Source: Flavobacteriales bacterium
Lineage (GTDB): Bacteria; Bacteroidota; Bacteroidia; Flavobacteriales_F; PHOS-HE28
NCBI GenBank assembly: GCA_036405935.1
Contig: DASWWQ010000169.1
Span: 1 to 54,763 of the forward strand
DNA length: 54,763 nt
Reading direction: 5' to 3'
Positions 2,729-47,498 of the stretch are shown one piece after another. The translations under genes were made by a program, and so were the position numbers. The notes under the pieces are model-generated. The model made no database searches. It was not told the DNA's origin and saw only the letters and a list, made by a program, of their open reading frames with translations. Position 1 is the first letter of the stretch; every line of letters starts with the position of its first letter.

Positions 2729-2780
2729 GGGGTGCAAGTTGTGGGCGTGCCTTCGCCCCGGTCCAGGTATTTCCACCTGT

Positions 2781-3134: not shown

Positions 3135-3339
3135 CGGGCCGGAAGGTAGAAAGGCAGCCTCAAGAACGGCGGCGGCCCCCGACGGAATGGACCGGGTGAA
3201 GGGCTTGTTCGGTCCGTGTTATCCTTCCCGGTTGCTTGGAGCGCGATCCTTCCACGCACTAAGGATCGGATAGGCCATGCGCAGCGTGTGCGCCGAATGT
3301 AAAGGGCCCTTCGCCACCTTTACCTCCACACTCCACGGC

Positions 3340-3693: not shown

Positions 3694-3731
3694 GCGATTG
3701 TCGCAAGTGCGTAATGTGCTTCCATTCGATC

Positions 3732-4346: not shown

Positions 4347-4447
4347 GGCCCGAACTTACGGGGTTGGAAGGGATGGCGTGCCGCATGTGTCACTTAGAAC
4401 CAGTCGCTTGCCGCTTTCATCGTACAGGAAAGTGCTAGGGAAGGTGG

Positions 4448-5134
4448 TCAACGCTCCTTCCTCGGGATCCAGTCCAACAATCCGATCAGTTCCGAATGAT
4501 ACTCGGCCACCCCACCATCGATCCGCTCAGTACCTCTGAGGCCGGTGAAACGATCCCGCCATCCGTCCAGATCATGCGCTGCACAGAGGAATAGATAGGC
4601 GACCAGTTCCTCGTTCAGGAAAGAGGCCGAATGAAGTCGCTTCTCCCATTGCTCAAGTTGAACGGTAGTGGGTACAGGTAGTTCAACGATCAAGGTGGAG
4701 CGCGTATCGATTGTCATGTTACCGCTTGGGTCCGCTGACCTGCTGAATTCCCATTTCCAACACGGTACGCTCATAAGATCCAGGAGCGGACCTTGAGGTA
4801 CCGTCATCAGCTCCATCACCACCAGCGAGGAATCCGTCACGGAGATGGTACACGTTTCCACAGCACTCCATTCGTGAAAGGAGGTGTCGGGGGCGGAGCA
4901 GTCATAAAGAGTGAACTCGGAAAAGAACGTGCCTTCATTCCCTCGGTCGATGTAGCCACAGAGCCCGATGGTGAGGTCCGATGTCACATGGAACAAGGAG
5001 TCCGGCGGTTTCAACTCATCATCCAGAAAGTCCCGGCATTGGCACGCGGGTACTTGACCGAAGGCGCTGTCGGAGCTGAAGCAAATGACCATGGCAACGG
5101 CCAGTAGAGCTCGCGACAACTGTAGAAAGGGCAT
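4448..5134 (-). CDS. Hypothetical secreted protein
   Basis: ORF 4448..5242 trimmed to the ATG at 5134 (MPFLQLSRALLAVAMVICFSSDSAFGQ signal peptide). No recognisable domain. Confidence 0.5.
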   Translation of the reverse strand: MPFLQLSRALLAVAMVICFSSDSAFGQVPACQCRDFLDDELKPPDSLFHVTSDLTIGLCGYIDRGNEGTFFSEFTLYDCSAPDTSFHEWSAVETCTISVTDSSLVVMELMTVPQGPLLDLMSVPCWKWEFSRSADPSGNMTIDTRSTLIVELPVPTTVQLEQWEKRLHSASFLNEELVAYLFLCAAHDLDGWRDRFTGLRGTERIDGGVAEYHSELIGLLDWIPRKER

Positions 5135-5238
5135 GGGGTAGGGAAAACAGTGGCACTGCAACGATCCCGAAGGTAGCGTACCCCCAACGTCAAAAGGGCC
5201 CCCTTGCGGGAGCCCCTTCGATCGAAGAGCGGTAGCTA

Positions 5239-24054: not shown

Positions 24055-24747
24055 TCAGCGCTTGCTGCTCACGAAATGTCGGAGCTGGTTCATGATGTTC
24101 TCCGCACGCTCCGTAGATACCCGTGGATCGAGGTGTGCGTGGATCGCTTCGTGGAGATCTTTCCGTCGGAGCAGTGAGCTGAACTCCTGCCGGAGGTAGT
24201 GCTGCACATCATCAGGTGCATTCCGGAATTCCTCCAACCACCCCAGCCTGCCATCGAGAACGAAGACGATATCCTCGAAGTCCTTGCTGGTGCGCATGTC
24301 ACCGCCGCGGCTTTTGAACGCTTCCAGTTTGGTGGCCAGGAAATACGGCGTGGTCAACAGCTTGATCGTCGAAGCGTCGGGAAGTACATGGTCCAGAGCA
24401 TGGGTCATGCCGGGTATGTACCACTTGTTCGTGGGGCCGATCGCTGGCACATCCGTTGGCATGATGTCCACCATGACGCCGTGGAACCGATAACGACAGA
24501 TGACCTCATCCTCCGGCGAATGATGGAACCCCAATCGGCGCAGACGTTCTTCCAAGCGCTCATACTCCGTGTAACTGGATACCACGATGACCAGATCGAT
24601 ATCGGAGGTCGGTCGCGGAATATCCGCACCCGGGTCGTTGGCGTACAGACTGACCACTGCGCCACCTACGAACACCACTTGGTCGCGCAGTTCCTCCAGG
24701 CCACCGGCGACCAACTGTACGGATTGGATGTTGATCGTATCGCGCAT
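24055..24747 (-). CDS. Nucleotidyltransferase-fold protein, AbiEii/MNT-like toxin candidate
   Basis: FVGGAVVSLYANDPGADIPRPTSDIDLVI fits the GG/GS...DxD minimal NTase motif. The start overlaps the upstream stop (TGATG; alternative GTG at 24750). Confidence 0.55.
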   Translation of the reverse strand: MRDTINIQSVQLVAGGLEELRDQVVFVGGAVVSLYANDPGADIPRPTSDIDLVIVVSSYTEYERLEERLRRLGFHHSPEDEVICRYRFHGVMVDIMPTDVPAIGPTNKWYIPGMTHALDHVLPDASTIKLLTTPYFLATKLEAFKSRGGDMRTSKDFEDIVFVLDGRLGWLEEFRNAPDDVQHYLRQEFSSLLRRKDLHEAIHAHLDPRVSTERAENIMNQLRHFVSSKR

Positions 24748-25259
24748 CACTTCAAGCGTCTCGCCAGTTCCTTGGCAGCCTCCGCACGTTCGCGCGTACG
24801 GCCCACACGTAGCGCATCCGTGAGTGCAAGGAGCGCGTGAAACTCCGGGTCGTTCAAGGAGGCGGCAACGGCACCCGGATAGAGTGGAGGGATCTCGTGT
24901 CCGCGTTCCTCACCCATGGCCGATGCCCAAACGTAGGTCTCTTCGCTCATGAACTTCGAACGCAACGGTGAAGCGGAATGAGCGGTGGGCACGCCACGTA
25001 CCATACCGCCGGGCCGGGCCGGGAACACATAGGCAAGACCATGCTGAAGGAAGTCGAGCAGCGCCTGGACCGCCACTTTGCGTTTGCCGGTATCGATCAA
25101 ACCGGCCAATGCCGAGCGCTTCAGTGAATTGCTCACCTCAGCAGGGCTCAGATGCAATGCCGCCGCCACCTCCCGGGCCAACCAGGGCTTTTCTCCGAGT
25201 GCCGCGATCTTGAGCAGCACCGCCACATCCTGTGGCCGCATTCCTTTATGAACGTTCAT
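24747..25259 (-). CDS. Winged-HTH protein, AbiEi-like antitoxin candidate
   Basis: 170 aa. N-terminal wHTH-like RPQDVAVLLKIAALGEKPWLAREVAAALHLSPAEVSNSLKRSALAGLI. Coupled to the NTase gene. Confidence 0.5.
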   Translation of the reverse strand: MNVHKGMRPQDVAVLLKIAALGEKPWLAREVAAALHLSPAEVSNSLKRSALAGLIDTGKRKVAVQALLDFLQHGLAYVFPARPGGMVRGVPTAHSASPLRSKFMSEETYVWASAMGEERGHEIPPLYPGAVAASLNDPEFHALLALTDALRVGRTRERAEAAKELARRLK

Positions 25260-25888: not shown

Positions 25889-25920
25889 TTGATCCTATAT
25901 GACTTGGTGGACTTACTTTG
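25889..25920 (+). promoter_or_regulatory. Candidate Bacteroidota-type promoter of the island operon (TTG-N21-TTACTTTG)
   Basis: TTG at 25889..25891 and TTACTTTG at 25913..25920 (7/8 to TAnnTTTG). Lies 27 nt upstream of the ATG at 25948. Confidence 0.35.
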
Positions 25921-25947
25921 GGACAATACGCAAAGCGCAGATTTGGG

Positions 25948-26922
25948 ATGAAGCGTGCAGAAAACAAGCGAACGATTCGCGCGATCGACATGTTCGCTGG
26001 CGGGGGAGGTAGCAGTTGGGGGGCCAAACAGGCCGGAGTGAAGGTGGTTGCCGCGTTTGACTTGTGGCATCTTGCCGAGAAGAACCACGAGGCCAACTTC
26101 CCCGATGTGCGGTTCTATCGTGATCGGCTGGAGAACCTGGATTTGAAAAAGGTCCGTAAAGAGGTGGGCCGGATCGATCTGATCATGGCCTCGCCCGAGT
26201 GCACGAACCACAGCCCGGCCAAAGGCAACAAACCACGCAGCGAGGAAAGCAAGGACACCGCATTTCAAGTCACGCGCTTCGCAGAGGCCTTCAAGCCAAA
26301 GTGGATCGTGGTGGAGAACGTGGTGAACATGCGGAAGTGGTCGCGCTATAAGGAGTTCCAGGGCAAGCTCGAAGCGCTAGGCTATAAGTGCACTGAGCAA
26401 GTATTGAATGCAGCCGACTTTGGAGTGGCCCAAAGCAGGCGGCGACTGTTCCTCCTGTGCCAGCGAGGCAAGAAGGCACCACTCAAGACACACAAGCCCG
26501 ACCTGCCCAAGGTCAGCGTGAGGCCCATCGTGAACATGAACGGTGCGTACCGATGGACACCACTCAACCAGCCCAGACGGGCGAAGGCGACCTTAGAACG
26601 TGCTTCGCGAGGCTTTGAGAAGATGGGCTACAACAGCGCCTTTTTATTAGTCTACTATGGCTCGGATGGCGGTGGTGGCTGGCAGCGATTGAGCCGTCCA
26701 TTGCGCACGATCACAACTGTGGACCGGTTCGCCATCGTGAAGCCGACTCCGCAGGGTCACGTGATGCGGATGCTACAGGTACCGGAACTACAACAAGCGA
26801 TGGGTATGCACGGCATGTGCTTCGAACACGGCACTCGGCGAGACAAGATTAAGATGATTGGGAATGCTGTGTGTCCCCCTGTCATGGCCACTGTACTCAG
26901 AGAACTTACTCGCAACAAGTAA
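25948..26922 (+). CDS. DNA (cytosine-5)-methyltransferase
   Basis: ORF 25918..26922 trimmed to the ATG at 25948. Motif I DMFAGGGG, motif IV ASPECTNHS (P-E-C, not the canonical P-C-Q), ENV (VVENVV), QSRRRLFLL, motif X GNAVCPPV. Confidence 0.92.
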   Translation: MKRAENKRTIRAIDMFAGGGGSSWGAKQAGVKVVAAFDLWHLAEKNHEANFPDVRFYRDRLENLDLKKVRKEVGRIDLIMASPECTNHSPAKGNKPRSEESKDTAFQVTRFAEAFKPKWIVVENVVNMRKWSRYKEFQGKLEALGYKCTEQVLNAADFGVAQSRRRLFLLCQRGKKAPLKTHKPDLPKVSVRPIVNMNGAYRWTPLNQPRRAKATLERASRGFEKMGYNSAFLLVYYGSDGGGGWQRLSRPLRTITTVDRFAIVKPTPQGHVMRMLQVPELQQAMGMHGMCFEHGTRRDKIKMIGNAVCPPVMATVLRELTRNK

Positions 26923-29036
26923 TGGCAGAGCCGGATAGCAAAAAGGGTGTGCAGCTGCATCCGGATGATCTTGTCTTTCAGGTCAAACCGCGCATTCTGG
27001 GACTTCTCGGTGACCAACTAATACGAGACGCTACGCTTGCGGTGTTCGAATTGGTGAAGAACGCATACGATGCCGATGCAAACGAGTGCACCGTAACACT
27101 TGAGGATGCTCTCGATCCGCGCAAATCCCGAATCACGGTCAAAGACAACGGGTCGGGTATGACGCGGGAAACGATTCAAGATTCATGGATGGTGATTGCG
27201 ACAGACTTTCGAACGAGTCAGCGCGCTCGGAACGAAAGAAGTCCTCGGTACAATCGATATGCACTTGGCGAGAAAGGACTTGGGCGCTTCTCTATTCATA
27301 AGCTTGGCCATGAAATCAGAATGACTACAAGGACTGATGGCGGTCCTGAGTATGTTCTGCAAATCCAATGGGATGAACTTGAAAGTTCTAGCGATTTACG
27401 CTTGAGTCCTATTCGCCTGATCACGAGGGAGCCTGAAGTCTTTAAGGGAAAGAAGCATGGCACCCTTATGGAAATTTGGAAGTTACGAGAAGTGTGGGAG
27501 CGTGGTTCCGTGAGACGACTGCATCGTGCCGTGAATAGTCTTTGTTCCCCATTTGACGCCCCCGATGACTTCAAGGTCGAGCTAAAGGTGCCGGGGAATG
27601 AGGAACTGCTTAAAGGACTGCTTCAGGCAGAGAAGATTCCGACTTATGCGCTATACCACGTAAAAGGGCACTTCGAAGGTCATAGGTTGGAGTTTGACTA
27701 CAAGTTCACACCACCGGTTGGACTGCAGCCACTGTTGACCCCGAGCAAGAAGGCCAAGCATTTCTCAGGTAACCTTCAGCGGAAAGAGCTCAAGGGCAAA
27801 CGCAAGCAAGTAACGTTCGATCTGTCGCAACATGAAATTGGTCGGGTTGAATTCGAATTCTGGTTGTTTGATCGGGATCCAGCCGTCTTGCGTGCATCGA
27901 CGGATGACATCAAGGGACTCAAGGATTACCTCGATGAGAATGGTGGGGTAAGAATCTACCGCGACGGAATACGTGTTTATGACTTTGGAGAGCCAGGTAA
28001 TGACTGGCTGAATCTGGATATCCGACGCGTTAACACGCCAACTGCACGTACAAGTAACAATCAGATTATTGGTGCTTTATGGCTCTCAGCTGAGGATAGC
28101 GGCGACCTGAGAGAGAAATCAAATCGTGAGGGGTTCATTGAAAGTCCCGCCTTCAACGATTTCAAAGACGCCGTCATTTCGGTTCTAACCAACGTTGAAG
28201 CAGAGAAGACCCGGGATCAGCAGCACGTGCGCGAAGCTGTTGGTAAGGGCACTGGAGGTCGTGTTTTCACGCACCTGAATGAGTTGCGCGATACGCTTGC
28301 GCAAAAGGGCATGCTGGAGGAGTTGGACCCCCAATTGAAGAAGGTCGAACGCGAGATGGAGTTGTACCGCGACCAGCTATTGCATGCGGCCGTTCCAGGT
28401 CTCTCCATGGGCATGATGCTTCATGGTGCTGAGAAAATCATGGAAGAGCTTCGCGCTGCGGTCAACAAGGGCGAGAGTGTAAAGCACGTTGCAGCGCTTG
28501 TTGATCGGCTGTACAGAGCGATGCGACCGGTCACAAACCTGCTGAAGGACCCAGGCATCGGCAAAACGACGGCCACCGCGTTAATCGCGGAAGCCAAGTT
28601 CTCGACGGCGTTACGTCTTAAGCGTCATGGCATCGCCCCGATCTATCCAGAGCGCCCGTTTGATTTCCCCGTGCGTGGCTCAAAACAAATGCTGGTTGCC
28701 GCGCTTACCAACTTGGTTGACAACGCAATCCACTGGCTAGAGGTCAAGAACCCGGATAAGAAGATTCTCTATCTGAGCACGACAAACGATTTGAGTTCGG
28801 GGCCGGCCATCGTGGTGGGGGACAATGGTCCTGGATTCGGGAGTGATGATCCTCAAGATCTGGTCCTGCCCTTCTTTACACGACGGAGAGACAGCATGGG
28901 ACTCGGTCTCTATATCGTTAACGAGGTAATGGCAGCGAATCAAGGGCGATTGGTCTTTCCGGCAAAAGGAGATATCAACCTGCCGAAGGAAGTTACCGGT
29001 GCCGTGGTCGCGTTGCAGTTTCCAGACAAGCCATGA
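26922..29036 (+). CDS. Double Bergerat-fold protein: N-terminal MORC/MutL/Hsp90-type GHKL ATPase module plus C-terminal histidine-kinase-like DHp + CA module
   Basis: The ATG at 26922 shares one nt with the MTase stop (TAATG). N-terminal half: ELVKNAYDA (N box), DNGSGM (G1, nt 27144..27161), GEKGLGRFS (G2). C-terminal half: helical MMLHGAEKIMEEL (His501, nt 28422..28424), NLVDNAIHW, GDNGPGF (nt 28821..28838), GLGLYIV. No TM segments. Confidence 0.8.
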   Translation: MAEPDSKKGVQLHPDDLVFQVKPRILGLLGDQLIRDATLAVFELVKNAYDADANECTVTLEDALDPRKSRITVKDNGSGMTRETIQDSWMVIATDFRTSQRARNERSPRYNRYALGEKGLGRFSIHKLGHEIRMTTRTDGGPEYVLQIQWDELESSSDLRLSPIRLITREPEVFKGKKHGTLMEIWKLREVWERGSVRRLHRAVNSLCSPFDAPDDFKVELKVPGNEELLKGLLQAEKIPTYALYHVKGHFEGHRLEFDYKFTPPVGLQPLLTPSKKAKHFSGNLQRKELKGKRKQVTFDLSQHEIGRVEFEFWLFDRDPAVLRASTDDIKGLKDYLDENGGVRIYRDGIRVYDFGEPGNDWLNLDIRRVNTPTARTSNNQIIGALWLSAEDSGDLREKSNREGFIESPAFNDFKDAVISVLTNVEAEKTRDQQHVREAVGKGTGGRVFTHLNELRDTLAQKGMLEELDPQLKKVEREMELYRDQLLHAAVPGLSMGMMLHGAEKIMEELRAAVNKGESVKHVAALVDRLYRAMRPVTNLLKDPGIGKTTATALIAEAKFSTALRLKRHGIAPIYPERPFDFPVRGSKQMLVAALTNLVDNAIHWLEVKNPDKKILYLSTTNDLSSGPAIVVGDNGPGFGSDDPQDLVLPFFTRRRDSMGLGLYIVNEVMAANQGRLVFPAKGDINLPKEVTGAVVALQFPDKP

Positions 29037-30436
29037 TTGAACAGCTCACTTCACCTTCAGTTTGCCTGATTGACGACGAAGCCGAGGACTATGGGCCGAT
29101 GCTAAAGGCCTTGTTCAGGCTGGGGGTCGCATGTATTCACTTTACAGGCTCGTCACATAAAGGAACGCCCAAGAAGCCTTTGGCAGATTTGCAACTCGTG
29201 TTCATGGATTTGCATCTGCAAGGCAGCATGGGCAAAACGGCGACTGCTCATGCCGTGAACGTTTTCACAAAGACAGTTTCTCCCAAGGCTGGTCCAGTGG
29301 TGGTGGTCATTTGGAGCAAGTATGCCAACGATCCTCCTCACGATCTCCCTCCCGAAGATGAGGCAACTACAGAAGTTGGCCGTTTCAAAACCGCGCTTAA
29401 GGAAACGATGGGTGATGCCTATGATCGCCTAATCATGTTAGTAATGCCCAAACCTCATCGAAATCAAAGGCCAGCCAATGATCGTTGGGTTCGCGATGTT
29501 GCAAACGGGGTAAAGCAAATTCTTGGGCAGCGCGCGGGTATCGGCCTCCTCTGGTCATGGGAGAAGATGGCAAAAGACGCTGCGGGTTCTGTATGTGGAA
29601 TCTTGACAACGCTCGCACTTGGCATGGCTCGTGCGAGCAATGCACCGGCTACTGATGATGGAGGGGAGCCTCTGAATGAGAACATAAAGCAGCTCATGAA
29701 GCTGCTCGCACAGTCCCAAGGTGCATCAGACTGTAGCCCCAAAACCGCCGCGCGCTACCTCATCATGACGATGAATCAATTGGCGCAAGACCAGCTCGAA
29801 CACTTTGTGATCCCCAAGAAGGTCGATGAACAAGGCGCATGGCTCTCAAATGCCTTGAATGCAAATGAACCCCCAGGATTGGATCGAGCTGAACTGAACG
29901 CGATGCTCCTTAGCACCCAGTCAACGGGACAAGATTTCAAACCGGGTACCGTTTATGAGGTGGAGAATGCCTCGGCGTGGGAGAGGCATACTGGACTGAG
30001 CCTCGAAGAGCTGAGATTCGATTGTTGTGTAAAAGGAGCCACAGCCCTTGCAGAGTTGACAGCCAATAGCACTCTGGTTCTCGTGGAATTGACACCTAGT
30101 TGTGACTACGCTCATGTGGGCAAGAGGAAGACCTCGGTTCTTATGGCGGGGCTTGCTGTAAATGAGGCTGCACTAAGACACATCAAGACAGCAGGAACTA
30201 CTAAAATTATTCCTCAGCCGATTGGCGGCAATCAGAGAAATCCGCTGACTAATCGCTTTGCCACGCCTCAGAAGAAGATTGGATTTGTCTTCTGCAGCAT
30301 GTATCCAACAGTTCTGCCTTTGAAGAAGCAACCTAAATGGATTAAGCCCATGGCGCGATTGCGAGAGACCGTGGCAATGGACGTACGATACTGGGCCTCA
30401 TCGCAAGCCGCCCGAGTGGGCTATCTGTCAGTCTGA
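29033..30436 (+). CDS. Receiver (REC)-domain protein with unassigned ~325-aa C-terminal domain
   Basis: ATGA overlap with the upstream gene. REC signature residues are present: LIDDE (D14, D15), VFMDLHL (D59, nt 29207..29209), VVVIWSKY (S95), VMPKP (K140-P141). I recognise no HTH, TM or catalytic motif downstream. Confidence 0.75.
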   Translation: MIEQLTSPSVCLIDDEAEDYGPMLKALFRLGVACIHFTGSSHKGTPKKPLADLQLVFMDLHLQGSMGKTATAHAVNVFTKTVSPKAGPVVVVIWSKYANDPPHDLPPEDEATTEVGRFKTALKETMGDAYDRLIMLVMPKPHRNQRPANDRWVRDVANGVKQILGQRAGIGLLWSWEKMAKDAAGSVCGILTTLALGMARASNAPATDDGGEPLNENIKQLMKLLAQSQGASDCSPKTAARYLIMTMNQLAQDQLEHFVIPKKVDEQGAWLSNALNANEPPGLDRAELNAMLLSTQSTGQDFKPGTVYEVENASAWERHTGLSLEELRFDCCVKGATALAELTANSTLVLVELTPSCDYAHVGKRKTSVLMAGLAVNEAALRHIKTAGTTKIIPQPIGGNQRNPLTNRFATPQKKIGFVFCSMYPTVLPLKKQPKWIKPMARLRETVAMDVRYWASSQAARVGYLSV

Positions 30437-30563
30437 CGATAAGCTTCAGTCATATCAGTGTTTCTGCCTCTCCCCAGAGAACACCTTGAAGAGCAAGAGG
30501 CCCTCCACCGCTCCTCCAAAGAGCATCCGCGACGTGGATGGTCTGTTGGTCCAAGTCACGGTA

Positions 30564-31016
30564 ATGCCAGATGACTTGCTCCTACTTCTGCGCGCCAGAT
30601 TGGAAGAAGAGATGCGCAAGCGTAAGATTGCATTCTCAGTCGGGGCGGTCGGTGAGGGACTTGTGATAAGCCATTTCAAAGGAACTCCTGGACTACCTAA
30701 TCTTCAACTTGCTCCTACCGGAACGAAGAATGTCGATGCGCTTTCGCGAAATGGTGATCGCTATTCGATCAAGACCATCTGCAATGCGAAGAAGACAGGG
30801 ACGATCTATCCCGACGCTTTGGACAAGGACAGACAGCTTTTTGAGTACTTGATTATCGCGCGTTTGACTGCTGACTGGTCATTGCATAGCATTCATCAGT
30901 TCAGCTGGAGCGCTTTCTTGGAAGTTCGTTCGTGGGACAAACGGATGAACGCTTGGTATGTAGCCATTTCTGAACGAGCCATGGCTAAGGCAACGCGCAT
31001 CTTGCCGGTTGAGTAG
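30564..31016 (+). CDS. Small PD-(D/E)xK-like protein (candidate restriction-endonuclease-fold), hypothetical
   Basis: ORF 30486..31016 uses a TTG start. The first ATG is at 30564 (MPDDLLLLLRARL...). GAVGEGLVISHF...GTKNVDALSRNGDRYSIKT gives an E...D...(S)xK arrangement resembling the nuclease core. The assignment rests on motif only. Confidence 0.45.
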   Translation: MPDDLLLLLRARLEEEMRKRKIAFSVGAVGEGLVISHFKGTPGLPNLQLAPTGTKNVDALSRNGDRYSIKTICNAKKTGTIYPDALDKDRQLFEYLIIARLTADWSLHSIHQFSWSAFLEVRSWDKRMNAWYVAISERAMAKATRILPVE

Positions 31017-32331: not shown

Positions 32332-32734
32332 TGCGTCGTTCAGCATGTGACGTGGGCGTACTATTTCGTAGCCACGATCAGGAACGCGAAAATATCCTTC
32401 GTGAAGGCGAAAGGCCGGAGGCCTACATATTCGTGCCGGGGACTTGGTCCGAAGTGACCGGATCAGGCCAAGAACGGATCTACTTGGTTGCCATCGACCG
32501 AACGCGTTCGAACCCAACGGCGTTGATGACCCTTGGATCGAACCCGCTGGAAAGTTCCTGGAACGGCGGAGCCGGTAAGGTGTCCGAAATCGTCATGCCG
32601 GAAGAGTTGTTCGCATCGACATCACCTGCGTGACGGACCGCACATGGCCCTGCGCGGGAAGTTGACGCGTAGCGAGTTCTCGCTATTGGAAGGGTGCCTC
32701 GGTCCGGCGTTCTTTGCTCGTTCAACCTCCTCCC

Positions 32735-35700
32735 ATGCGTGCCCTTTTCCTGTACTTCGTCCTGCTGCCCGTCCTGCTGAAGGCCCAAACACCCACCTAT
32801 GCCTGGGCCCACAGTGTGCGCAACGTAGGCACGGACGGGCAAGGGAACCAGTGCATCGATGTGTCCACCGCCCCCGATGGTAGCCTGTATGCGATCGGGA
32901 TCTCGTACGGCACGGAGGTGATCATCGACGATGTGCTGCTGCCCATGCAGGGCGACCGCCGCTACCTGGTGCGTTTCGACAGCACGGGTAATCCCTTGTG
33001 GAGCCGCAGTCCGGGTGGTTGGGCGGTGGCCGCGGATGGGAATAATGGTGTCTATGTAGCCGGCTTGTTGTTCCAACCGCTCACCTTCGCCGGTACCACC
33101 TACACCCCCAGCGGCAACGATGCCTTCCTGGCGAAATACGGTCCCGATGGCGAGGAACTCTGGCTCCGCAGAATGGGTGGTGCGGGCGATGATGGCGCCT
33201 TCGATGTGGCCGTGGATGGACTGGGCCGCGTGCATGTGAGCGGTTTCTTCACGGGCACGGTGGACTTCGGTGGTGCCACGCTCACGGCCACGCATGCACA
33301 AACGGGTTTCCACGCCAGCTACAACGCTGCCGGTAACCTGCAGTGGGCCGCGCTGGCCGGTGGATACGACCCACCGGAACCGGGGGTGTACACCTGGAAC
33401 GCCCTTGCCTGTGACGGGGAGGGCAACAGCTACATCACGGGCAATTTCACCGGCACCGGTCTGTTCGGAACCAATAGTACGTCCATCAACACCACGCAGA
33501 CCGAACGGCAGTACCTGGCGCGATACGATGCGAACGGCGCCTGCATCTGGGCGGTGGTGAACGGCTCCGCTACGGGGAATGTGGGATCCCACATCTCCCT
33601 ATCCGCCACCGGTGGATTGTACCTGTGCGGCAGTTTCAAGGGTACGGCGGCTTCGTTCGGAGCGAACAACACGGTGTACAATGCGCACCCCAACAACGCT
33701 CAGATCTACGTGGCCCGGTACGACACCGCAGGCGATGGGCAATGGGCCGTGATCCTGACCGGTGGCGTGTTCGGCAGCTCCGCCAGCAGCGTTTGCACCG
33801 ATGCTGCCGGCACGGTGTGGGTGACCGGAACAGCGGGGTCGGGCAGCTCGGACCCGGAGGATGAACTCGTGGATGTCGGTGGCTTCGAGGTATTCGACAA
33901 CCTGATCTTCATTGGTCAGCTCGATCCCGATGGCACGGTGCTGAACGTGGAGAACATGGTGGGCCTGCAATCGCACGGCGCGCACACCATCGATGCCTTC
34001 GGCGCCCACATCACCTACGGATCGCTCTTCAGCTACCGCAATTTCGACCCTGCGGGCATGGCGGTGTTCGGCTCGTCGTTGCTCGATGCCGACAACGGCT
34101 ATGTGGCGCGCTATTCACCCGGCTTCGCATACCGCTGGTTGCGGATGGCGGGGCAGCCTGGCGTGGCGGCTGATGCCACCACCGCCGTGGCGTTGGGCAC
34201 CGCTGGGGAGGTATACAGCACGGGCTACTTCAACACCACGGCCATCATCTGCGGTGACACCTTGTGGGCACCGTTGGAGAACACGCACATCTGGCTGAAC
34301 AAACGTGCGGCGGACGGCAGTTGCTTGTGGAAACGGCAGATCAGGTGCAGCCGCGCCGGCAGCATGTCGCAGGTCAACGCGGCCTTGGGCATGGCCGTAG
34401 CGGCGAACGGCGATGTGGTGTTGTGCGGTCGTTTCTTCGGCACCATCGACTTCGGTGCGGTGCAGTTGACGAGCGTGGGGCGGGCCGACCTCTTCCTGGC
34501 GCGCTTCAACGCGGACGGCACCTGCTTGTGGGCCGTGCGCGGCGGTGGCACCGGTGATGACGAGGGCACCGCGCTCGCGCTGACAGCGAATGGCGACATC
34601 GGGGTCACCGGTGCGTACACGGGCAGCGCCACGATCGCGGGTGTTGCACTCACCAGCCAAGGTGCCACCGACGGTTTCGTGGCGCGGTACAGCGGTAGTG
34701 GGAACAGCCTGGCCTGTGCAAGCTTCGGTGGCAGCGCGGCGGACTTCGGTTCGGCCATTGCCGTGGACGCGACAGGCAACGCATACGTTGCGGGCCGCTT
34801 CACCACCAGCGCCACCTTCGGCACCACCACGCTGGAGAGCACGGCTCTGGAAGACCTCTTCGTAGCGCAATACACGCCCACCAATACCGTGGGGTGGGCA
34901 GTGGGCAGCACGGGTGCGGACCACAAACAAGCGAACGGCATCGCCTTGGGTGCGGGCGGTCGCCTCCATGTGGTAGGCACCTACTACGCGAGCCTCACCT
35001 GGGGTGCCACCACGATCATGGGCGACCCCGCGGCATACCACCCCTTCTTCGCCACCCTGAACACCGCCGGTGAAATGCAATGGTTGCATGACCTGCCCTG
35101 CACCGACGGTTCCGCCCAGGTCATCCGGGTGCGCCCCGGTGGCGAAGTGGTGGTGGGCGGCCAATTCAGCGGAAGTCTGGATGTGGGCACCACGACCGTG
35201 ACCACGAGCGGCACATCGGCAGCTTGGATGGCCGCATTCAACCCCGAAGGCGAAGACCATTGGGTGCAGGTGATGGAGGGCAGTACCAGCGGCGATGCAG
35301 GCCTCTGCTCCACCCTTGCCGTGGACGCCGAACAGGTGATCGCTGGCGGCCATTTCGGCAACTACGTCTTCATGGCCTTTTTCCAACCCGGTTCCACCTT
35401 CTCGTTCGATGCAGGGAGCACTGCTGATGATCTGTTCGCGCCGAACAGTTACGACGCCTACGTGGCGAAGTACACCATCCCGCAGATCATGGCCATCGAT
35501 GAAAGGGGCAGTTCGGCGTTGCTGCTCGCCCCGAACCCGGTGACCCGCACCGGCACCGTCCAACCCGATGCTCCGCTTGCCCCCGACGCCACGGTCCGCA
35601 TCAACGACATCACCGGCCGCACGGTCCACGTACCCTTGCTCCGGCAAACGGAACGGTTCACCTTCGATGCAAGCGCCTTGGCACCGGGAACCTATTTGCT

Positions 35701-35752
35701 CACGCTGGAGCAAGGTGGGATGCAGCGCAGTGTGCGCTTCGTGAAGGAGTGA
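32735..35752 (+). CDS. Large SBBP-type beta-propeller repeat protein with T9SS C-terminal sorting domain
   Basis: ORF 32714..35752 trimmed to the ATG at 32735 (MRALFLYFVLLPVLLKAQ). Repeated GxxxDxGxAIAVDxxGNxYVTGxF units. C-terminus LLLAPNPVTRTGTV...GTYLLTLEQGGMQRSVRFVKE. Confidence 0.8.
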   Translation: MRALFLYFVLLPVLLKAQTPTYAWAHSVRNVGTDGQGNQCIDVSTAPDGSLYAIGISYGTEVIIDDVLLPMQGDRRYLVRFDSTGNPLWSRSPGGWAVAADGNNGVYVAGLLFQPLTFAGTTYTPSGNDAFLAKYGPDGEELWLRRMGGAGDDGAFDVAVDGLGRVHVSGFFTGTVDFGGATLTATHAQTGFHASYNAAGNLQWAALAGGYDPPEPGVYTWNALACDGEGNSYITGNFTGTGLFGTNSTSINTTQTERQYLARYDANGACIWAVVNGSATGNVGSHISLSATGGLYLCGSFKGTAASFGANNTVYNAHPNNAQIYVARYDTAGDGQWAVILTGGVFGSSASSVCTDAAGTVWVTGTAGSGSSDPEDELVDVGGFEVFDNLIFIGQLDPDGTVLNVENMVGLQSHGAHTIDAFGAHITYGSLFSYRNFDPAGMAVFGSSLLDADNGYVARYSPGFAYRWLRMAGQPGVAADATTAVALGTAGEVYSTGYFNTTAIICGDTLWAPLENTHIWLNKRAADGSCLWKRQIRCSRAGSMSQVNAALGMAVAANGDVVLCGRFFGTIDFGAVQLTSVGRADLFLARFNADGTCLWAVRGGGTGDDEGTALALTANGDIGVTGAYTGSATIAGVALTSQGATDGFVARYSGSGNSLACASFGGSAADFGSAIAVDATGNAYVAGRFTTSATFGTTTLESTALEDLFVAQYTPTNTVGWAVGSTGADHKQANGIALGAGGRLHVVGTYYASLTWGATTIMGDPAAYHPFFATLNTAGEMQWLHDLPCTDGSAQVIRVRPGGEVVVGGQFSGSLDVGTTTVTTSGTSAAWMAAFNPEGEDHWVQVMEGSTSGDAGLCSTLAVDAEQVIAGGHFGNYVFMAFFQPGSTFSFDAGSTADDLFAPNSYDAYVAKYTIPQIMAIDERGSSALLLAPNPVTRTGTVQPDAPLAPDATVRINDITGRTVHVPLLRQTERFTFDASALAPGTYLLTLEQGGMQRSVRFVKE

Positions 35753-36806: not shown

Positions 36807-39800
36807 CTACATGTTCCTGCGGTACTGCCCACCGACTTCGAACATGGCGGCGGTCAGCTGTCCAAGGCTACAGTACTTGGTCGCTTCCATGAGCACTTCG
36901 AACATGTTCTCGTTCTTGATCGCGGCCTGCTGCAGGTCCTTGATCGCCTTGGCGGCTTCTTCGCTGTAGGCCGCGCGCAGATTCTCCACCGTGGCGATCT
37001 GCGCCTCCTTCTCTTCCTCCGTTGCCCGGATCACTTCCTTCGGCAATACGGTCGGAGAACCTTTCGAACTCAGGAAGGTGTTCACACCGATGATCGGGTA
37101 TTCGCCGGTGTGCTTCAGCGTTTCGTAGTAGAGGCTTTCCTCCTGGATGCGGCTGCGCTGGTACATGGTCTCCATGGCGCCGAGCACGCCGCCGCGTTCG
37201 GTGATGCGGTCGAACTCGGTGAGTACGGCCTCTTCCACCAGGTCGGTGAGCTCTTCGATGATGAAGCTGCCCTGCAACGGGTTCTCGTTCTTGGCCAGGC
37301 CGAGCTCCTTGTTGATGATCAGCTGGATGGCCATGGCGCGGCGCACGCTTTCCTCGGTGGGCGTGGTGATGGCCTCGTCGTAGGCGTTTGTGTGCAGGCT
37401 GTTGCAGTTGTCGTAGATGGCGTAGAGCGCCTGCAACGTGGTGCGGATGTCGTTGAAGTCGATCTCCTGCGCGTGGAGGCTGCGGCCGCTGGTCTGGATG
37501 TGGTACTTGAGCATCTGGCTGCGCTCGTCGGCGCCGTAGCGGTGCTTGAGCGCCTTGGCCCAGAGGCGGCGCGCCACGCGGCCCATCACGGCGTATTCGG
37601 GGTCCATGCCGTTGCTGAAGAAGAAGCTCAGGTTGGGCGCGAAGGCGTTGATGTCCATGCCGCGGCTGAGGTAGTACTCCACGTAGGTGAAGCCGTTGGC
37701 CAGCGTGAACGCGAGCTGCGAGATGGGGTTGGCGCCGGCCTCCGCGATGTGGTAGCCGCTGATGCTGACGCTGTAGAAGTTGCGGACCTTCTTGTCGATG
37801 AAGTACTGCTGCACGTCGCCCATCAACCGCAGCGCGAACTCGGTGCTGAAGATGCAGGTGTTCTGCGCCTGGTCCTCCTTGAGGATGTCGGCCTGCACGG
37901 TGCCGCGGACCTGCGCGAGGGTGTCGGCCTTGATCTTGGCGTAGACGTCGGGGGGGAGGACTTGGTCGCCGGTTATTCCGAGCAACAGCAAGCCGAGACC
38001 GTCGTTGCCTTGGGGGATCTCACCATGGTAATGCGGCCGTGCGCTGCTGGCCTTAGGCTGCTGGCTGCTGGCCTGCTTGGCGTGGCCAGTAGCCAGGAGC
38101 GAGGAGCCAGCAGCTTTCCACCGCTCTTGGATCTTCTTCTCCACCTCTGCTTCCAGTCCGTGCTCCCGGATATACTTCTCGCAGTTCTGATCGATGGCTG
38201 CGTTCATGAAGAAGCCGAGCAGCATGGGTGCCGGACCGTTGATGGTCATGCTCACGCTGGTGGTGGGTGCGCTCAGGTCGAAGCCGCTGTAGAGCTTCTT
38301 GGCATCGTCGAGGCAGCAGATGCTCACGCCACTGTTGCCCACCTTGCCGTAGATGTCGGGACGGCGGCCGGGATCATGCCCATACAGCGTCACGCTGTCG
38401 AAGGCGGTGCTGAGGCGCTTGGCCGGTAGGCCTTGGCTGACGTAGTGGAAGCGCTTGTTGGTGCGCTCGGGTCCGCCCTCGCCGGCGAACATGCGTGCGG
38501 GATCCTCGCCTTGGCGTTTGAACGGATAGATGCCCGCCGTGTAGGGGAAGAAGCCGGGCGTGTTCTCCTGCATGGCCCAGCGGACCTTGTCGCCCCAGCT
38601 GCGGAACTTCGGCAGCGCCACCTTCGGGATCTTCAGGTGACTGAGGCTCTCGGTGTGGTTGGGCACCTTGATCTCCTTGCCGCGTACCAGGTAGGTGTAG
38701 AACTCGCCGCTGTACTTCTCCTCTTCGCTCTTCCAGCCCGTGAGCATGGACCAGAGGTGGGGGTCGAGATCCTTGCGCAGCTCATCGAACTTCTTGACCA
38801 ATGAAGCTACTTCTGGGCCCAGTTGCGGGTTGACGGGTTGACGGGTTGTGTGTTGGCTGTCGTCCTCCACCCGTAACCCGCCAACCCGCAACCCGTCAAC
38901 GCTTTCGAGCAGATCCGGTCCCCCGAAGGTCAGAACGGCCGAGTACAATCCGTACAGCTTGTCCGCGATCTCCGCCTGCTGCTTCACCTTGCCGTCGTAG
39001 CGGCGGTTGTTCTCGCTGATCTCGCTGAGGTAGCGGCTCTTGGCGGGGGGGATGATCCAGACCTTTTCGCTCATCTCGTCGTGCGCGGCGAAGGTGCTCT
39101 TGAAGTCCGTGCCCGTCTTCTCGGCGATCTTCTTCATCAAGCGCGCATAGAGCACGTTGGTGCCGGGATCGTTGAACTGGCTCGCGATGGTGCCCACCAC
39201 GGGCAGGTCATCGTCATTGGCGTCCCACAGCTGGTGGTTGCGCTTGTACTGCTTCTTCACGTCGCGCAGGGCATCGAGGGCGCCGCGCTTGTCGAACTTG
39301 TTGATGGCCACCACATCGGCGAAGTCGAGCATGTCGATCTTCTCCAACTGCGTGGCCGCGCCGAACTCCGGCGTCATGATGTAGAGGCTGACGTCGCTGT
39401 GGTCCAGGATCTCGGTGTCGCTCTGGCCGATGCCGCTCGTTTCCAGCACGATCAGGTCGAAGCCTGCGGCCTTCAGCACGCTCACCGCCTCCTTCACGTG
39501 CTTGCTCAGCGCGAGGTTGCTCTGGCGCGTGGCCAAGGAACGCATGTACACCCGCTCCCCGCGGATGCTGTTCATGCGGATGCGGTCGCCCAGCAGCGCA
39601 CCGCCGGTCTTGCGCTTGCTCGGGTCCACGGAAATGACACCGATCGTCTTCGTGGGTTGGTCCAGGATGAAACGGCGGATCAGCTCATCCACCATGGAGG
39701 ATTTGCCCGCGCCGCCCGTACCCGTGATGCCCAGCACCGGCGCCTTGCTGGCCTCGGCCTTCTTGTGGATCTCGTCGGCGATCTTCCCGAACACCGCCGG

Positions 39801-40334
39801 GTGGTTCTCCGCCGTGCTGATCAACTTGGCGATGGCCGGCCAGTTCTGCGGCGTCAGCTTCTTCGCTTCGCCGTTCACCTTGTCGCTGAGGTCGAAGTCG
39901 GCCTTCTCCAGCATGTCGTTGATCATGCCCTGGAGGCCCATCGCGCGGCCGTCGTCCGGATGATAGAGTCGCGTGATGCCGTACCGATGCAGTTCCTCGA
40001 TCTCCTCGGGCAGGATGGTGCCGCCGCCGCCGCCGAAGATCTTGATGTGCCCTGCGCCCTTCTCCTTCAGCAGGTCGTACATGTACTTGAAGTACTCCGT
40101 GTGCCCGCCCTGGTAGCTGGTCATGGCGATGGCGTGCGCATCCTCCTGGATCGCGGTGTTCACCACGTCCTCCACGCTGCGGTCGTGCCCCAGGTGGATC
40201 ACCTCGGCGCCGGTGCTCTGGATGATGCGCCGCATGATATTGATGGCGGCATCATGGCCATCGAAGAGGCTGGCGGCGGTAACGACGCGGATCTTGTGCT
40301 TGGGCTGGTAGGGAGGGGCGGTGACGAAGGACAT
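36807..40334 (-). CDS. icmF: Fused isobutyryl-CoA mutase (B12-binding domain + MeaB-like GTPase + mutase TIM barrel)
   Basis: 1175 aa. N-terminal B12 domain ([18 protein letters not shown]), P-loop [16 protein letters not shown], and a C-terminal methylmalonyl-CoA-mutase-like domain ([19 protein letters not shown]). Confidence 0.93.
38043..38114. repeat. In-frame hairpin-forming insertion in icmF (GCTGCTGG-type repeats)
   Basis: 31-nt arms at 38043..38073 and 38084..38114, 24/31 complementary, with a 10-nt loop. Encodes part of [18 protein letters not shown]. Confidence 0.6.
38822..38900. repeat. In-frame hairpin-forming insertion in icmF (GGGTTG-type heptamer/octamer repeats)
   Basis: Left arm GTTGCGGGTTGACGGGTTGACGGGTTG (38822..38848). 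The reverse complement of the right arm (38868..38900) is GTTGACGGGTTGCGGGTTGGCGGGTTACGGGTG. Encodes [27 protein letters not shown] in the GTPase-mutase linker. Confidence 0.65.
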
Positions 40335-44028: not shown

Positions 44029-45255
44029 TCACTCCACCGCCGCCAGCTTCTCCCCATACCGCCCCAAAAGTTCCCAGATGCGGATGTGGTGGGTGAAGTC
44101 CTCCAGGTCGGTGTTCACGATCAGGTAGCGGCCCACGCCGGTGCTCCGGTCCACGAAGAGCATGGAGAAGGTACCGGGATCACCGCCGGTGTGCCCGAAG
44201 TAGGTCCCGGAGCCGAAGCCCATGAGGATGCCCATGTTGTGCTCATCGGTGAACGGCCCCTTGGCGCGGTCCACGAAGTGCGCGGCCGTCAATTGCTCGC
44301 GGAAGTACTCGGCATAACCGGCCTTGTCCAGGACGGTGCCTTCACCGCGATGGCCCCTGATCAGTTCCGCCACGTATTTCGCCATGTCCGCGGGTGTGCT
44401 GACGAACCCTCCATCCGGGTAGGTGATGCAGTAGTAGTCCGGGTAGTGTTCGGTGCGTGTGCGGTACAGCTGCGTCATTTGAATGTCGCTGCGTGGGCCC
44501 ATGCGCCAGTAGGACGATGCCATGCCCAGCGGGTCCAGGATATGCTGTTGGGTGAACGCATCGAACGACATACCCGTTGCCTTCTCCACGACCAACGCTG
44601 CCAGCGTTGCGCCGACGTTCGAGTATTCGAACCTTTCACCGGGCTTCGTGTCCATGAAGGCCGAATTGGAGTAGTAGGCACTGTCCTTCATCAGGTAGCG
44701 CCGGAGGAAGGTCTCCATGGGCAGAGCGGCGGAAGGCGCACTGAACCGGCAAGGGCTGATGTCGATGGACAGGTGGGCCTGCAGGTCGGCGGTATCGGAA
44801 AGGATGTACGTCCGATGCAGGTAGTCGTCGGTGTCCGTGATCGAGGACGTGTGCGTAACGAGATGCCGGAGCGTGATCGGCACCTCGGCGTGGTTCGGGT
44901 TGATGATGGCGAAAGGCAGGTGTTCCGCGATCGGGTCATCGAGCTGCAGCTTCCCGAGCTGTTGTGCCTTCAGCACCGCCAGACCGACCAAGGTCTTCGA
45001 GATGGACGCGATCGGCTGACGCGTATGGTCCCCGTAAGGAAGATGCCGGGCCACATCGGACCGGCCGAAGCCACGGTGGTACAACACGCCATCGGGTCCC
45101 GCAAGCGCCACACAGAAACCGTTGATGTCCGCGCTTTGGCTCAGCAGCGTCAGGGAGTCGGACAGCTCCTTTTCCAGCGATGCGCGGTCGGTAGGGGTAT
45201 TGGTGCCGCACGCCGCGAGCAGGCCAACAAGGGGGGTGAGGAATAGGAGCTTCAA
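44029..45255 (-). CDS. Beta-lactamase-fold serine hydrolase lipoprotein
   Basis: ORF 44029..45414 trimmed to the TTG at 45255 (MKLLFLTPLVGLLAAC lipobox). SxxK motif in IASISKTLVG. Confidence 0.8.
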   Translation of the reverse strand: MKLLFLTPLVGLLAACGTNTPTDRASLEKELSDSLTLLSQSADINGFCVALAGPDGVLYHRGFGRSDVARHLPYGDHTRQPIASISKTLVGLAVLKAQQLGKLQLDDPIAEHLPFAIINPNHAEVPITLRHLVTHTSSITDTDDYLHRTYILSDTADLQAHLSIDISPCRFSAPSAALPMETFLRRYLMKDSAYYSNSAFMDTKPGERFEYSNVGATLAALVVEKATGMSFDAFTQQHILDPLGMASSYWRMGPRSDIQMTQLYRTRTEHYPDYYCITYPDGGFVSTPADMAKYVAELIRGHRGEGTVLDKAGYAEYFREQLTAAHFVDRAKGPFTDEHNMGILMGFGSGTYFGHTGGDPGTFSMLFVDRSTGVGRYLIVNTDLEDFTHHIRIWELLGRYGEKLAAVE

Positions 45256-45416
45256 TGTGGAGGACCGTGTGCGAAGATCCGACCGCTGGGGGGGCGCAAA
45301 GGTTGCCCGGCAGGCTTCAGCCTTCCTGTGTTGAACAAATCCCGGCGCTTTTCCGTAGCGGTGGGCAGGCCGCTTTCTCTTTGCGGCTGCGTCCTTCTCC
45401 TGGACCAACCACACCT

Positions 45417-47498
45417 ATGCGCAGAATACCATCCCTCCTCGTTGTCGCTCTGGCGTTGAACGCCGCCACCCTCCACGCTCAGACCCCCACCTACGCCTGG
45501 GCCCGGTTCGCCGGGAACATCGGCAACCAACAGGCCAGTGGACGTGCCATCGCGGTGGATACCCAGGGCAACGTCTTCGTGGCCGGTATCGGTGCACCCA
45601 GCATCAACTGGGGTGGCATCAACCTCACCAACTGCCAGCAGTACCTGATGAAGGCCGACAACAGCGGCACGGTGCTCTGGGCGAAGAAGATCCCCATGCG
45701 GCCGGATTTCCTGGCCACGGACAGCCAGGGCAACGTGTACGTTTCCGCCTCGGCCCAAGGTGCGGTGAACCTCGATGGCACCACCGTGCCCGGTGACTTC
45801 TCCACGGCAAGCGTGCTGTTGGTGAAGTTCGATCCGCAAGGCACGCTGCTCTGGTTCCGGAACCACCTCCCGAACACCGACCACACCACGCCCGGACGGG
45901 TGATGGTGGATGCGGCCGATAACGTGTACCTGTGCGGGGCCTTCAATACCAGCATCACCATCGGGGGGGTCACCTACACCGGTCAACCGGAGAACGGTTC
46001 GGCGGTCTTCGCCGTGAGCTATGCGCCGGATGGGACCTTTCGGCGCGCCAATGCCACTTCATCCGCACCGCCGGTGGCCAGCTTGAACATCATGGCGGTG
46101 GCCGCCTGTGATACCACCTGCGCCATCATCCGCGGTGGAGTGTTCGGTGGTGTCGATGAGTTCCAGATCGGGGACTTCAACCTGACCGTTACCAGTGAAC
46201 AGATGCCCGCATTCAACGCCTACCTGGCCAAATGGGCGCCCAACGGTGAGGTCCTTTGGGCAAAGGCCTCCGGTGGCATCGGTACGGAGGATCTCACCGA
46301 CGTGGTCGTGGGCCGTCGTGGGCACATCGTCATCGGCGGCTCCTTCACGGGCGATTTCTTCGACCCCGATAGCGCAACAGTGTTCGGAAGGCGCCTGTTC
46401 CTGCAGAGCCAGAGCTACAACCTCGCGGACATGTACACGGCGTCGTTCACCCCGGATGGTGAAGTGGATTGGATCGAACGCGCCGGTGGCAACCACGTCG
46501 ATGGTGGGCCGATGCTCAGCGTGGATGCCATGGACAATGTCTACGCCTACGGCGGCGGATTGAGCGGGTTGATGACCTTCGGTCAGTTGGAGGTGTATCC
46601 GTTCCGCGGCAGCTACATCGTGAAGTTCGCGCGGAACGGTGAGGTGCGCTGGGCCAAGCTGATGATGGCCGGAGTGGGCGATGGCAACAACTGCCTGGGG
46701 GCGGCTGCCGATACCCACGGGAACGTCTATGTCACCGGCATGCAGAGCGATACCATCCGCTTGGATGCGTTCCAGAACATCACTCCGGCCTCGAACAACT
46801 TCGATGTGTTCGTGGCCAAGCTCAACAACTGCACGCCCGCCGTTTCGGAGGTGAACGCTTCGGGGCCCACGGTCTTCTGTCCGGGCGATAGCGTGGACCT
46901 GATCGCACCCGATGCCGCCGATCATCTCTGGAGCACGTTCGCCACCACGCCCGTGATCACGGTGGAAGAGGCCGGTTCCTATTCGGTGGTCACCTCCGAT
47001 ATGAACGGATGCATGACCTGGAGCGATACCGTGGAGGTGGAGCTCTTCGCGCCCGTGGTGCCGACGGCCACGTTGACGGATGGACTGCTCAGCAGCACCA
47101 CGGCCTCCGCCTACCAGTGGATCCTGGACGGGGAGGCGATCCCCGACGCCACCGACCAGACCTTCGATCCCATCGCCGACGGCTCCTACGCCGTGGTGAC
47201 CACCGACGCCAACGGCTGCGTCGCGCTTTCCCCTGCTGTGTTCTTCACGTCGGTGGGCCTCGCTGAAGCCCTCGCCCCGATCGATCGGGTGCTGACCTTG
47301 GGGGATGGGCGGGTCACCATCCTGTTGGGTGCGCCCGTGGATGGGCTTTGCATCCTGAACGCTGCGGGACAGGTGGTCCGGCGCGTGGAGCGACCCGCAC
47401 AGGACCGCGTGGAGCTGCAACTGATGGCGGGAGCTTACGTGTTGCGGAGCATGCGCAACGGTGTGCCGCAGTCGCAGCGCTTCGTGGTGATGCGCTGA
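45417..47498 (+). CDS. SBBP-type beta-propeller repeat protein with Ig-like region and T9SS C-terminal domain
   Basis: ORF 45255..47498 trimmed to the ATG at 45417 (MRRIPSLLVVALALNAATLHAQ). The N-terminus AQTPTYAWARF is paralogous to the protein at 32735..35752 (AQTPTYAWAHS). Confidence 0.75.
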   Translation: MRRIPSLLVVALALNAATLHAQTPTYAWARFAGNIGNQQASGRAIAVDTQGNVFVAGIGAPSINWGGINLTNCQQYLMKADNSGTVLWAKKIPMRPDFLATDSQGNVYVSASAQGAVNLDGTTVPGDFSTASVLLVKFDPQGTLLWFRNHLPNTDHTTPGRVMVDAADNVYLCGAFNTSITIGGVTYTGQPENGSAVFAVSYAPDGTFRRANATSSAPPVASLNIMAVAACDTTCAIIRGGVFGGVDEFQIGDFNLTVTSEQMPAFNAYLAKWAPNGEVLWAKASGGIGTEDLTDVVVGRRGHIVIGGSFTGDFFDPDSATVFGRRLFLQSQSYNLADMYTASFTPDGEVDWIERAGGNHVDGGPMLSVDAMDNVYAYGGGLSGLMTFGQLEVYPFRGSYIVKFARNGEVRWAKLMMAGVGDGNNCLGAAADTHGNVYVTGMQSDTIRLDAFQNITPASNNFDVFVAKLNNCTPAVSEVNASGPTVFCPGDSVDLIAPDAADHLWSTFATTPVITVEEAGSYSVVTSDMNGCMTWSDTVEVELFAPVVPTATLTDGLLSSTTASAYQWILDGEAIPDATDQTFDPIADGSYAVVTTDANGCVALSPAVFFTSVGLAEALAPIDRVLTLGDGRVTILLGAPVDGLCILNAAGQVVRRVERPAQDRVELQLMAGAYVLRSMRNGVPQSQRFVVMR

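Follow-up and report, generated by a model that had tools for sequence, protein, structure and literature searches.

A contig of 54,763 nucleotides from a Flavobacteriales bacterium (DASWWQ010000169.1 of assembly GCA_036405935.1, analyzed over its full length and called the window) carries a gene whose 467-aa product, here named REC-X, joins a receiver (REC) domain to an output module, and the question raised by this locus is what such a receiver would switch. A first-pass annotation had taken the receiver to be capable of real phosphotransfer and the C-terminal part to be a putative toxic effector, possibly with a new fold. On the basis of the analyses described below, we judge it an evenly balanced proposition that REC-X (ATG start, 29033..30436, plus strand) is a phosphorylation-gated effector of a restriction-modification (R-M)-like defense module; phosphotransfer, trigger, effector role, and substrate are all features of this scheme that we infer. 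The effector reading is favored because the output module is confidently folded and basic (pI 9.6 in its beta-rich part), with invariant C357 and D358 and near-invariant E352, R442, R444, and R461, because REC-X diverges fastest in the core of methyltransferase, histidine kinase (HK), and REC-X, and because searches of Pfam, NCBIfam, and PDB sequences detected no standard nuclease domain in that core apart from the REC-X output and the kinase middle region.

A divergent receiver and a confidently modeled output module

Relatives of REC-X numbered 1,457 representatives at E ≤ 1e-3 (clusters at 50% identity), and conservation was counted across an alignment of 111 relatives sharing only 18-40% identity with the REC-X of the window; when 83 aligned sequences were used for a word-indexed search, almost no further homologues came up. 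The receiver residues, described as intact in the first-pass annotation, were 90-100% conserved: D14 was kept in 107 of the 111, D15 in 100, D59 in 110, T/S95 in 107, and K140 in all, with a proline directly after K140 in 72. In the window these are D14/D15, D59, S95, and K140-P141, within a domain of aa 1-165 encoded at 29033..29527 (plus strand). When the 111-sequence profile was compared by hhalign with CheY, Spo0F, PhoB, NarL, and OmpR, the match had a probability of 92.9% (E 3.6e-7, 118 columns) in a register that pairs D14/15 with CheY D12/13, D59 with D57, and K140 with K109. In the full-length AlphaFold (AF2) model, aa 10-165 fold as a (beta-alpha)5 unit, and Foldseek searches with this model returned the receivers of EutV, Rv1626, FixJ, DctD, and PorX together with flavodoxins at E 1e-4 to 1e-2 (best 1.6e-4). 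Sequence searches of the PDB with 12- and 111-sequence profiles found response regulators only, each match being weak (E 0.17-0.97), and in single-sequence scans with the PF00072 hidden Markov model (HMM) the window REC-X had no match and 2 of 83 members matched only at E of at least 0.026. The insertion of ∼17 aa that had been claimed between beta4 and alpha4 is real: in the model, beta4 spans residues 89-95 and alpha4 residues 114-132, with a loop of ∼18 residues (aa 96-113) between them that is of low confidence at 101-106. REC-X thus shares with canonical CheY-like receivers (PF00072) the (beta-alpha)5 fold, the acidic pair, the acceptor Asp, the T/S that ends beta4, and the K-P at beta5, but it escapes the Pfam HMM, possesses the loop insertion, and has an invariant Trp preceding the T/S; its output, in contrast to those of canonical response regulators, is no known DNA-binding or enzymatic domain. 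Judged from the profile alignments and the model together, the N-terminal 165 residues of REC-X are a true, but highly divergent, REC domain. Two relatives, P0065 (350 aa) and P0114 (304 aa), combine a divergent REC (aa 1-170) with unrelated C termini, representing either an alternative output or a frameshift or fused gene call, and a Mur-ligase fusion that carries the output module (P0044) was set aside as a likely assembly or gene-call artifact.

The remainder of the protein was reported at first to lack transmembrane helices and any motif that could be placed, and both statements held: residues ∼145-467 contain no hydrophobic segment and gave no family match in searches of Pfam, NCBIfam, PADLOC, and PHROGs, where REC-X as a whole likewise yielded nothing usable. 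When 83 REC-X relatives were scanned with Pfam, no family recurred, whether the threshold was E ≤ 0.01 or E ≤ 10, and REC-X showed neither a helix-turn-helix (HTH) nor any other known DNA-binding output. When aa 166-467 were modeled alone (AF2, 111-sequence alignment), the predicted local distance difference test score (pLDDT) was 92.6 and the predicted template modeling score (pTM) was 0.87, and Foldseek gave no match below E 0.1 in the PDB and none below E 0.01 in BFVD. The proposal of a possible new fold stands because the C-terminal module models this confidently without a significant match in either library. It comprises an acidic helical subdomain (aa 166-295, 29528..29917, plus strand; pI 5.0) and a basic beta-rich subdomain (aa 296-467, 29918..30433, plus strand), the latter ending in a long helix in the model.

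G305, C357, and D358 were invariant in 111 of 111 sequences, the last two being residues of the acidic, His, or Cys type for which an alignment of homologues had been suggested at the outset. At least 90% of the sequences retained W176, E177, D253, and N289 of the helical subdomain and P304, E352, P355, G373, R442, R444, R461, and G463 of the beta-rich subdomain. The signature motif E352-x-[ST]354-P355-x-C357-D358-x-x-x-Q362 (30086..30118, plus strand; ELTPSCDYAHV in the window), with E352 in 105, P355 in 102, and Q362 in 92 of the 111, is the candidate active site. Among the patches that had looked conserved by eye, LVELTPSCDYAHVGKRK contains the invariant core (E352/P355/C357/D358) and the C-terminal ARVGYLSV includes R461 and G463, whereas GFVFCSMYPTVLPL turned out to be weakly conserved. 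Several known catalytic centers were compared with the module by eye and rejected. A caspase-like His-Cys dyad would need H267, which occurs in only 42 of the 111 relatives and is Gln in the window; the spacing is C-x7-R rather than the C-x5-R of a PTP-type loop, and R365 is found in only 66 of 111; the conserved Lys of PD-(D/E)XK enzymes is missing after E352/D358; the PGxVY strand leads in the model into helices and not into the hairpin of GIY-YIG; and the conserved His of HNH or PLD enzymes is missing.

Rapid divergence of REC-X beside a conserved kinase and methylase

REC-X evolves differently from the genes that accompany it. Excluding its own copy, the best 119 relatives of the kinase partner are 61-80% identical to it, among ∼3,000 matches below E 1e-10. 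Comparison of the window with related locus L005 gave identities of 89% for the methylase, 79% for the kinase, and 37% for REC-X; the corresponding values were 84%, 77%, and 39% for the window and L016, and 90%, 85%, and 50% for L009 and L013. For L009 and L011, REC-X was 88% identical and as conserved as the neighboring genes. In the discordant pairs, the nonsynonymous divergence (dN) of REC-X was 4-10 times that of its partners, and between L011 and L013 the synonymous divergence climbed along the operon from 0.59 to 1.7 to more than 4. This rise is as much a sign of allele replacement by recombination, with a mosaic operon as its outcome, as of rapid point evolution, and the comparison of these sequences suggests that REC-X alleles are swapped by recombination. 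Because methylases that are nearly identical occur beside strongly differing REC-X alleles, DNA-sequence specificity is unlikely to reside in REC-X. Rapid divergence is typical of the effectors of conflict systems.

The plus-strand operon is ordered C5 cytosine DNA methyltransferase, kinase fusion, REC-X, and small protein. The methyltransferase (25918..26922, plus strand, 334 aa) matched Pfam PF00145 at 7e-38 and a DrmMII-like PADLOC model at 2.5e-96. The kinase partner (26922..29036, plus strand, 704 aa from its ATG) consists of a paraMORC-type GHKL domain, a middle region, a DHp domain, and a CA domain. Its ATG overlaps the methylase stop as TAATG, and the REC-X ATG overlaps the kinase stop as ATGA; these overlaps indicate that the three genes are translationally coupled. 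The N terminus of the kinase partner is of the MORC/MutL-type GHKL class with a Pfam HATPase_c_3 match, HATPase_c was also matched (C-terminally), and the middle region of ∼280 aa is very conserved. NCBIfam returned HK matches along with the N terminus of the BbrUII/HgiDII restriction-enzyme model, and a PDB histidine kinase (9p6i_A) aligned to aa 486-682 at E 9e-7. Both sets of GHKL ATP-binding motifs are intact, as are the N, G1, and G2 boxes (NLVDNAIHW, DNGPGF, and GMGLGLY). The predicted phospho-donor is His501 (MMLHGAEK; codon at 28422..28424, plus strand), the only His of the DHp region that is common to the kinase partner and the distant HKs of loci L015, L017, and L018, and it is kept even where the partner REC-X is only 22-24% identical to that of the window. 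From these alignments we conclude that the partner contains an HK-type DHp/CA core with an invariant H-box His. The H-box reads L-H-G-A-E-K in the window subfamily versus F-H-E-[VI]-E-[RK] in L015, L017, and L018; in most HisKA kinases an acidic residue directly follows the His. The N-terminal ∼200 residues resemble the methyltransferase-linked paraMORC/MORC GHKL proteins and BbrUII/HgiDII Type II enzymes (NF050001, E 3e-24), but only model positions 5-196 of 659 were matched, the score was 85 bits against a cut-off of 550 bits, and the C-terminal half of the kinase partner is a histidine-kinase core that is followed by a separate receiver protein.

Downstream of REC-X, after a gap of 50-130 nt, lies a gene for a small restriction-endonuclease-like accessory protein (30486..31016, plus strand; 176 aa from a TTG, with a possible ATG at 30564) that matched PADLOC mREase_II PDLC03213 ('methyl-directed Type II restriction enzyme') at 1.2e-47 and DUF6998 weakly. 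Its putative D...x-K motif reads S-I-K. Directly upstream of the methylase operon, on the minus strand at 24055-25259, are an AbiEii-type nucleotidyltransferase toxin (231 aa) and its MarR/HTH-like partner (170 aa), which matched PADLOC PDC-M21 (B at 6e-60 and A at 4e-41). Because this pair adjoins the methylase operon, the region is a small defense island. The GC content is ∼52% in the operon block compared with ∼63% in the chromosome (51-53% at ∼26000-31000 versus 61-66% in the flanks), as would fit an operon acquired horizontally. The whole window was found to be free of tRNA genes, and hence none flanks the island; a scan of the island for promoters and terminators gave results at chance level, and no Vsr homologue was found in it. 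Genes around the island include two for large SBBP beta-propeller repeat proteins (32714-35752 and 45255-47498), the first with a C-terminal sorting domain of the type IX secretion system (T9SS), one on the minus strand (36807-40334) for a 1,175-aa IcmF-like protein in which a B12-binding domain and a MeaB-like GTPase are fused to methylmalonyl-CoA mutase, and others for an M36 peptidase and T9SS-tailed proteins. This gene content, together with the GC of ∼63%, indicates a chromosome of the Bacteroidota type.

Related loci and the published gene pair

Twenty related loci (L001-L020) were compared, and a scan of a genome collection with a narrow alignment had given 7 close loci. The kinase fusion was directly followed by a REC-X homologue in 20 of 20, the stop of the first gene usually overlapping the start of the second, and a methyltransferase lay directly upstream in most, being of the C5 type in nearly all and of the N6/N4 type in L020, where the pair (764-5620 of MT837790.1) is preceded by a PF01555 methylase. 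The pair can thus go with more than one methylation chemistry, in keeping with an R-M-like logic. The system is patchily distributed and mobile (occurring on plasmids and in a transposon neighborhood), with thousands of kinase partners spread over many phyla; among L015, L017, and L018, one locus is on a conjugative Agrobacterium plasmid in a defense island and one is beside Tn7-like TnsA/TnsB genes. Defense genes that neighbor the pairs include Vsr, Mrr, HNH, AbiE-like, and others. Vsr genes accompany most C5 loci (L001, L003, L008-L014, and L018), that of L005 being a truncated 83-aa remnant. Orthologues of the small endonuclease-like gene (59-73% identity) were found only in L001, L003/4, L008, and L010, and in other loci the pair is followed by HNH or Mrr genes or by nothing recognizable. 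An accessory nuclease is absent from L009, L011-L014, and L016, in which the methyltransferase-HK-REC-X core alone is conserved. No PD-(D/E)XK, HNH, GIY-YIG, or PLD domain was found in this conserved core, and searches of Pfam, NCBIfam, and PDB sequences detected no standard nuclease in it, the REC-X output and the kinase middle region aside. Measured against Type II R-M systems, the methyltransferase is present and only the optional small protein matches a restriction-enzyme model (PADLOC). L019 (MT838277.1) and L020 are 5-6 kb records labeled 'UNVERIFIED: Bacteriophage sp.' from human feces; they hold essentially the methylase-kinase-REC-X triad without phage genes and may be bacterial fragments.

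A gene pair of this kind is already known from comparative genomics (Bellieny-Rabelo, Pretorius & Moleleki 2021, PMC8011034), and a literature search found no experimental follow-up. According to the sections of that paper covered here, a response regulator (RR)-like protein (Response_reg_2, PF19192) is linked to a paraMORC-related HK-like protein (HEF_HK, PF19191) in 91.6% of 644 regions, C5 methylases lie upstream of the pair, induction by infection or stress first drew attention to the genes in Pectobacterium, and a regulatory link to R-M systems is offered as speculation (PMC8011034); for the RR-like protein, these sections contain no analysis of the last 300 residues. The window shares with the published pair the order of a C5 methylase, a soluble protein with HATPase_c_3, a DHp-like H-box, and HATPase_c, and a divergent-REC protein of ∼450 aa, as well as the retained DD, D, T, and K residues, the loop insertions, and the R-M-rich neighborhood. 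At E ≤ 1, neither PF19191 nor PF19192 matched the window proteins, and in L015, L019, and L020 the kinase and the receiver-like protein likewise had no match to either model. None of the 83 family members matched PF19192 at E ≤ 0.01, and this model was absent among the matches listed at E ≤ 10. Either the clade formed by the window and its relatives thus lies beyond the published models, or these are narrowly drawn. We conclude that the window system is, by architecture as read from its genes, of the same kind as the published pair, with its proteins falling outside PF19191 and PF19192. A 2026 machine-learning survey includes a predicted, unvalidated defense system with HATPase and REC domains that could be the same as the window system.

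A possible phosphorelay-gated effector or adaptor

In the mechanism that we propose, the paraMORC GHKL ATPase of the kinase partner, joined to the DHp/CA core, would be a presumed sensor of DNA or nucleotide state. The trigger would most plausibly be DNA without the modification of the co-encoded methyltransferase, in response to which His501 would be phosphorylated and the phosphoryl group passed to D59 of REC-X. The output module would then be switched on, probably via REC-driven dimerization or release of the first long helix, which carries LWxWE and lies directly after alpha5. The module would act as the effector, its basic, beta-barrel-like part presenting the E-x-[ST]-P-x-C-D center and four conserved arginines, and its predicted target is nucleic acid. 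That the output module is toxic or has an effector role we infer from the methyltransferase and defense-island context together with the rapid evolution of the gene. In its most far-reaching form, which we put forward tentatively as something short of probable, the module would be an unrecognized enzyme fold with a Cys-Asp (E-x-S/T-P-x-C-D) active center, forming the aspartyl-phosphorylation-switched killing arm of a new immune-system class, 'phosphorelay-gated restriction', in which the MORC-like ATPase would read DNA methylation and signal through a His-Asp relay rather than cut the DNA itself.

A number of observations weigh against the effector reading. No sequence or structure match links the output module to a nuclease, toxin, or other enzyme, and the MazF-like Foldseek matches described below are beneath significance. 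For every family member the effector role is a prediction from the genes. The window REC-X itself deviates from the consensus at Q362 (Val) and P377 (Asn). With H-G in place of H-E in the H-box of the window subfamily, autokinase activity is not assured. No methylase is directly upstream in L015, L017, and L018, although in L018 a methylase is encoded downstream on the opposite strand, and L002 has none upstream of the pair in the DNA examined. The restriction-endonuclease-like small protein that follows REC-X, here and in some other loci, could be the real nuclease, and the fast evolution of REC-X could reflect weaker constraint or a role as adaptor or in recognition.

The likeliest alternative is that REC-X is a noncatalytic regulator or adaptor, the phosphorylated output module binding DNA or a partner while the killing activity resides elsewhere; we regard this as rather unlikely. 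REC-X might in that case license the paraMORC kinase, the small endonuclease-like protein, or an HNH or Mrr nuclease, or it might tune expression of methyltransferase or restriction genes. Foldseek recognized no catalytic fold in the module, plain DNA binding would suit the basic beta-domain, and the covered sections of PMC8011034 propose a regulatory role for the pair; against such a role, the invariant Cys-Asp and conserved Glu/Arg residues, retained at ∼20% identity, look catalytic rather than structural, and neither an HTH nor another known DNA-binding output turned up. A PADLOC restriction-enzyme-type protein immediately after REC-X in the window and in 4 further locus groups, and HNH or Mrr genes after the pair in other loci, would supply the separate nuclease, but these accessory genes vary and are missing from the loci named above in which the core persists.

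It is less probable still, and in our view unlikely, that the output module is a diverged toxin of the MazF/PemK/CcdB superfamily, which REC-driven dimerization would convert into a metal-independent endoribonuclease or gyrase poison; this narrower variant of the effector reading would result in abortive infection instead of DNA restriction. MazF works as a dimer, and REC domains often act by dimerization. The MazF/PemK proteins were the sole coherent Foldseek group for the beta-rich subdomain, in both PDB and BFVD, but all of these matches had E of at least 0.2 (probability ∼0.2-0.69, target-normalized template modeling score ∼0.46-0.63, 107-174 alignment columns). The order of elements as we read it in the model, with a strand following P-G, a strand that ends in E-x-S-P, a short helix, long hairpins, and an R-x-R strand before a terminal helix, also resembles the MazF topology. 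The likeness, weak but recurrent, would lie in a small basic barrel and a C-terminal helix; REC-X differs from MazF/PemK/Kid of the CcdB/MazF superfamily by its Cys-Asp center, which is invariant and without a MazF equivalent, its helical subdomain of ∼130 aa, and the helices inserted after the first strand. No sequence-profile relationship was found, as hhalign of the REC-X family profile with four MazF/Kid sequences gave a probability of 0.08%; Pfam PemK_toxin (PF02452) matched none of 83 members, and REC-X is without an antitoxin. Position 347, mapped by eye to the catalytic Arg of MazF, the one before the conserved Pro, is a mixture of K, R, T, I, and V and is not conserved. We take the likeness to MazF/PemK to be a possible one at the level of the fold, not homology. 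Finally, we consider it improbable that the pair, rather than serving immunity, is a housekeeping or epigenetic signaling device that would adjust physiology in response to the methylation of DNA or to nucleotide status, perhaps with a pseudo-receiver that operates independently of phosphotransfer, since the H-G variant H-box, the missing neighboring methyltransferase at some loci, and the infection- or stress-induced expression in Pectobacterium described in the covered sections of PMC8011034 are set against strong conservation of the REC phospho-chemistry residues and both kinase ATP sites, a patchy, mobile distribution, and a mosaic, fast-evolving REC-X typical of conflict systems.

Two-component signaling is usually understood to read the environment and to act on transcription in the end. 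The loci described here appear to hard-wire a His-Asp pair to DNA methyltransferases and MORC-type ATPases, within mobile defense islands that occur in many phyla. If the relay does gate an effector, it would represent a new coupling of self/non-self DNA discrimination to a response, and the bacterial MORC-like ATPases would gain a biochemical read-out. The output module of REC-X, with its very confident model, no recognizable relative among the solved and viral-predicted structures searched, and invariant residues that provide clean targets for mutation, is a good and tractable candidate for a new enzymatic activity.

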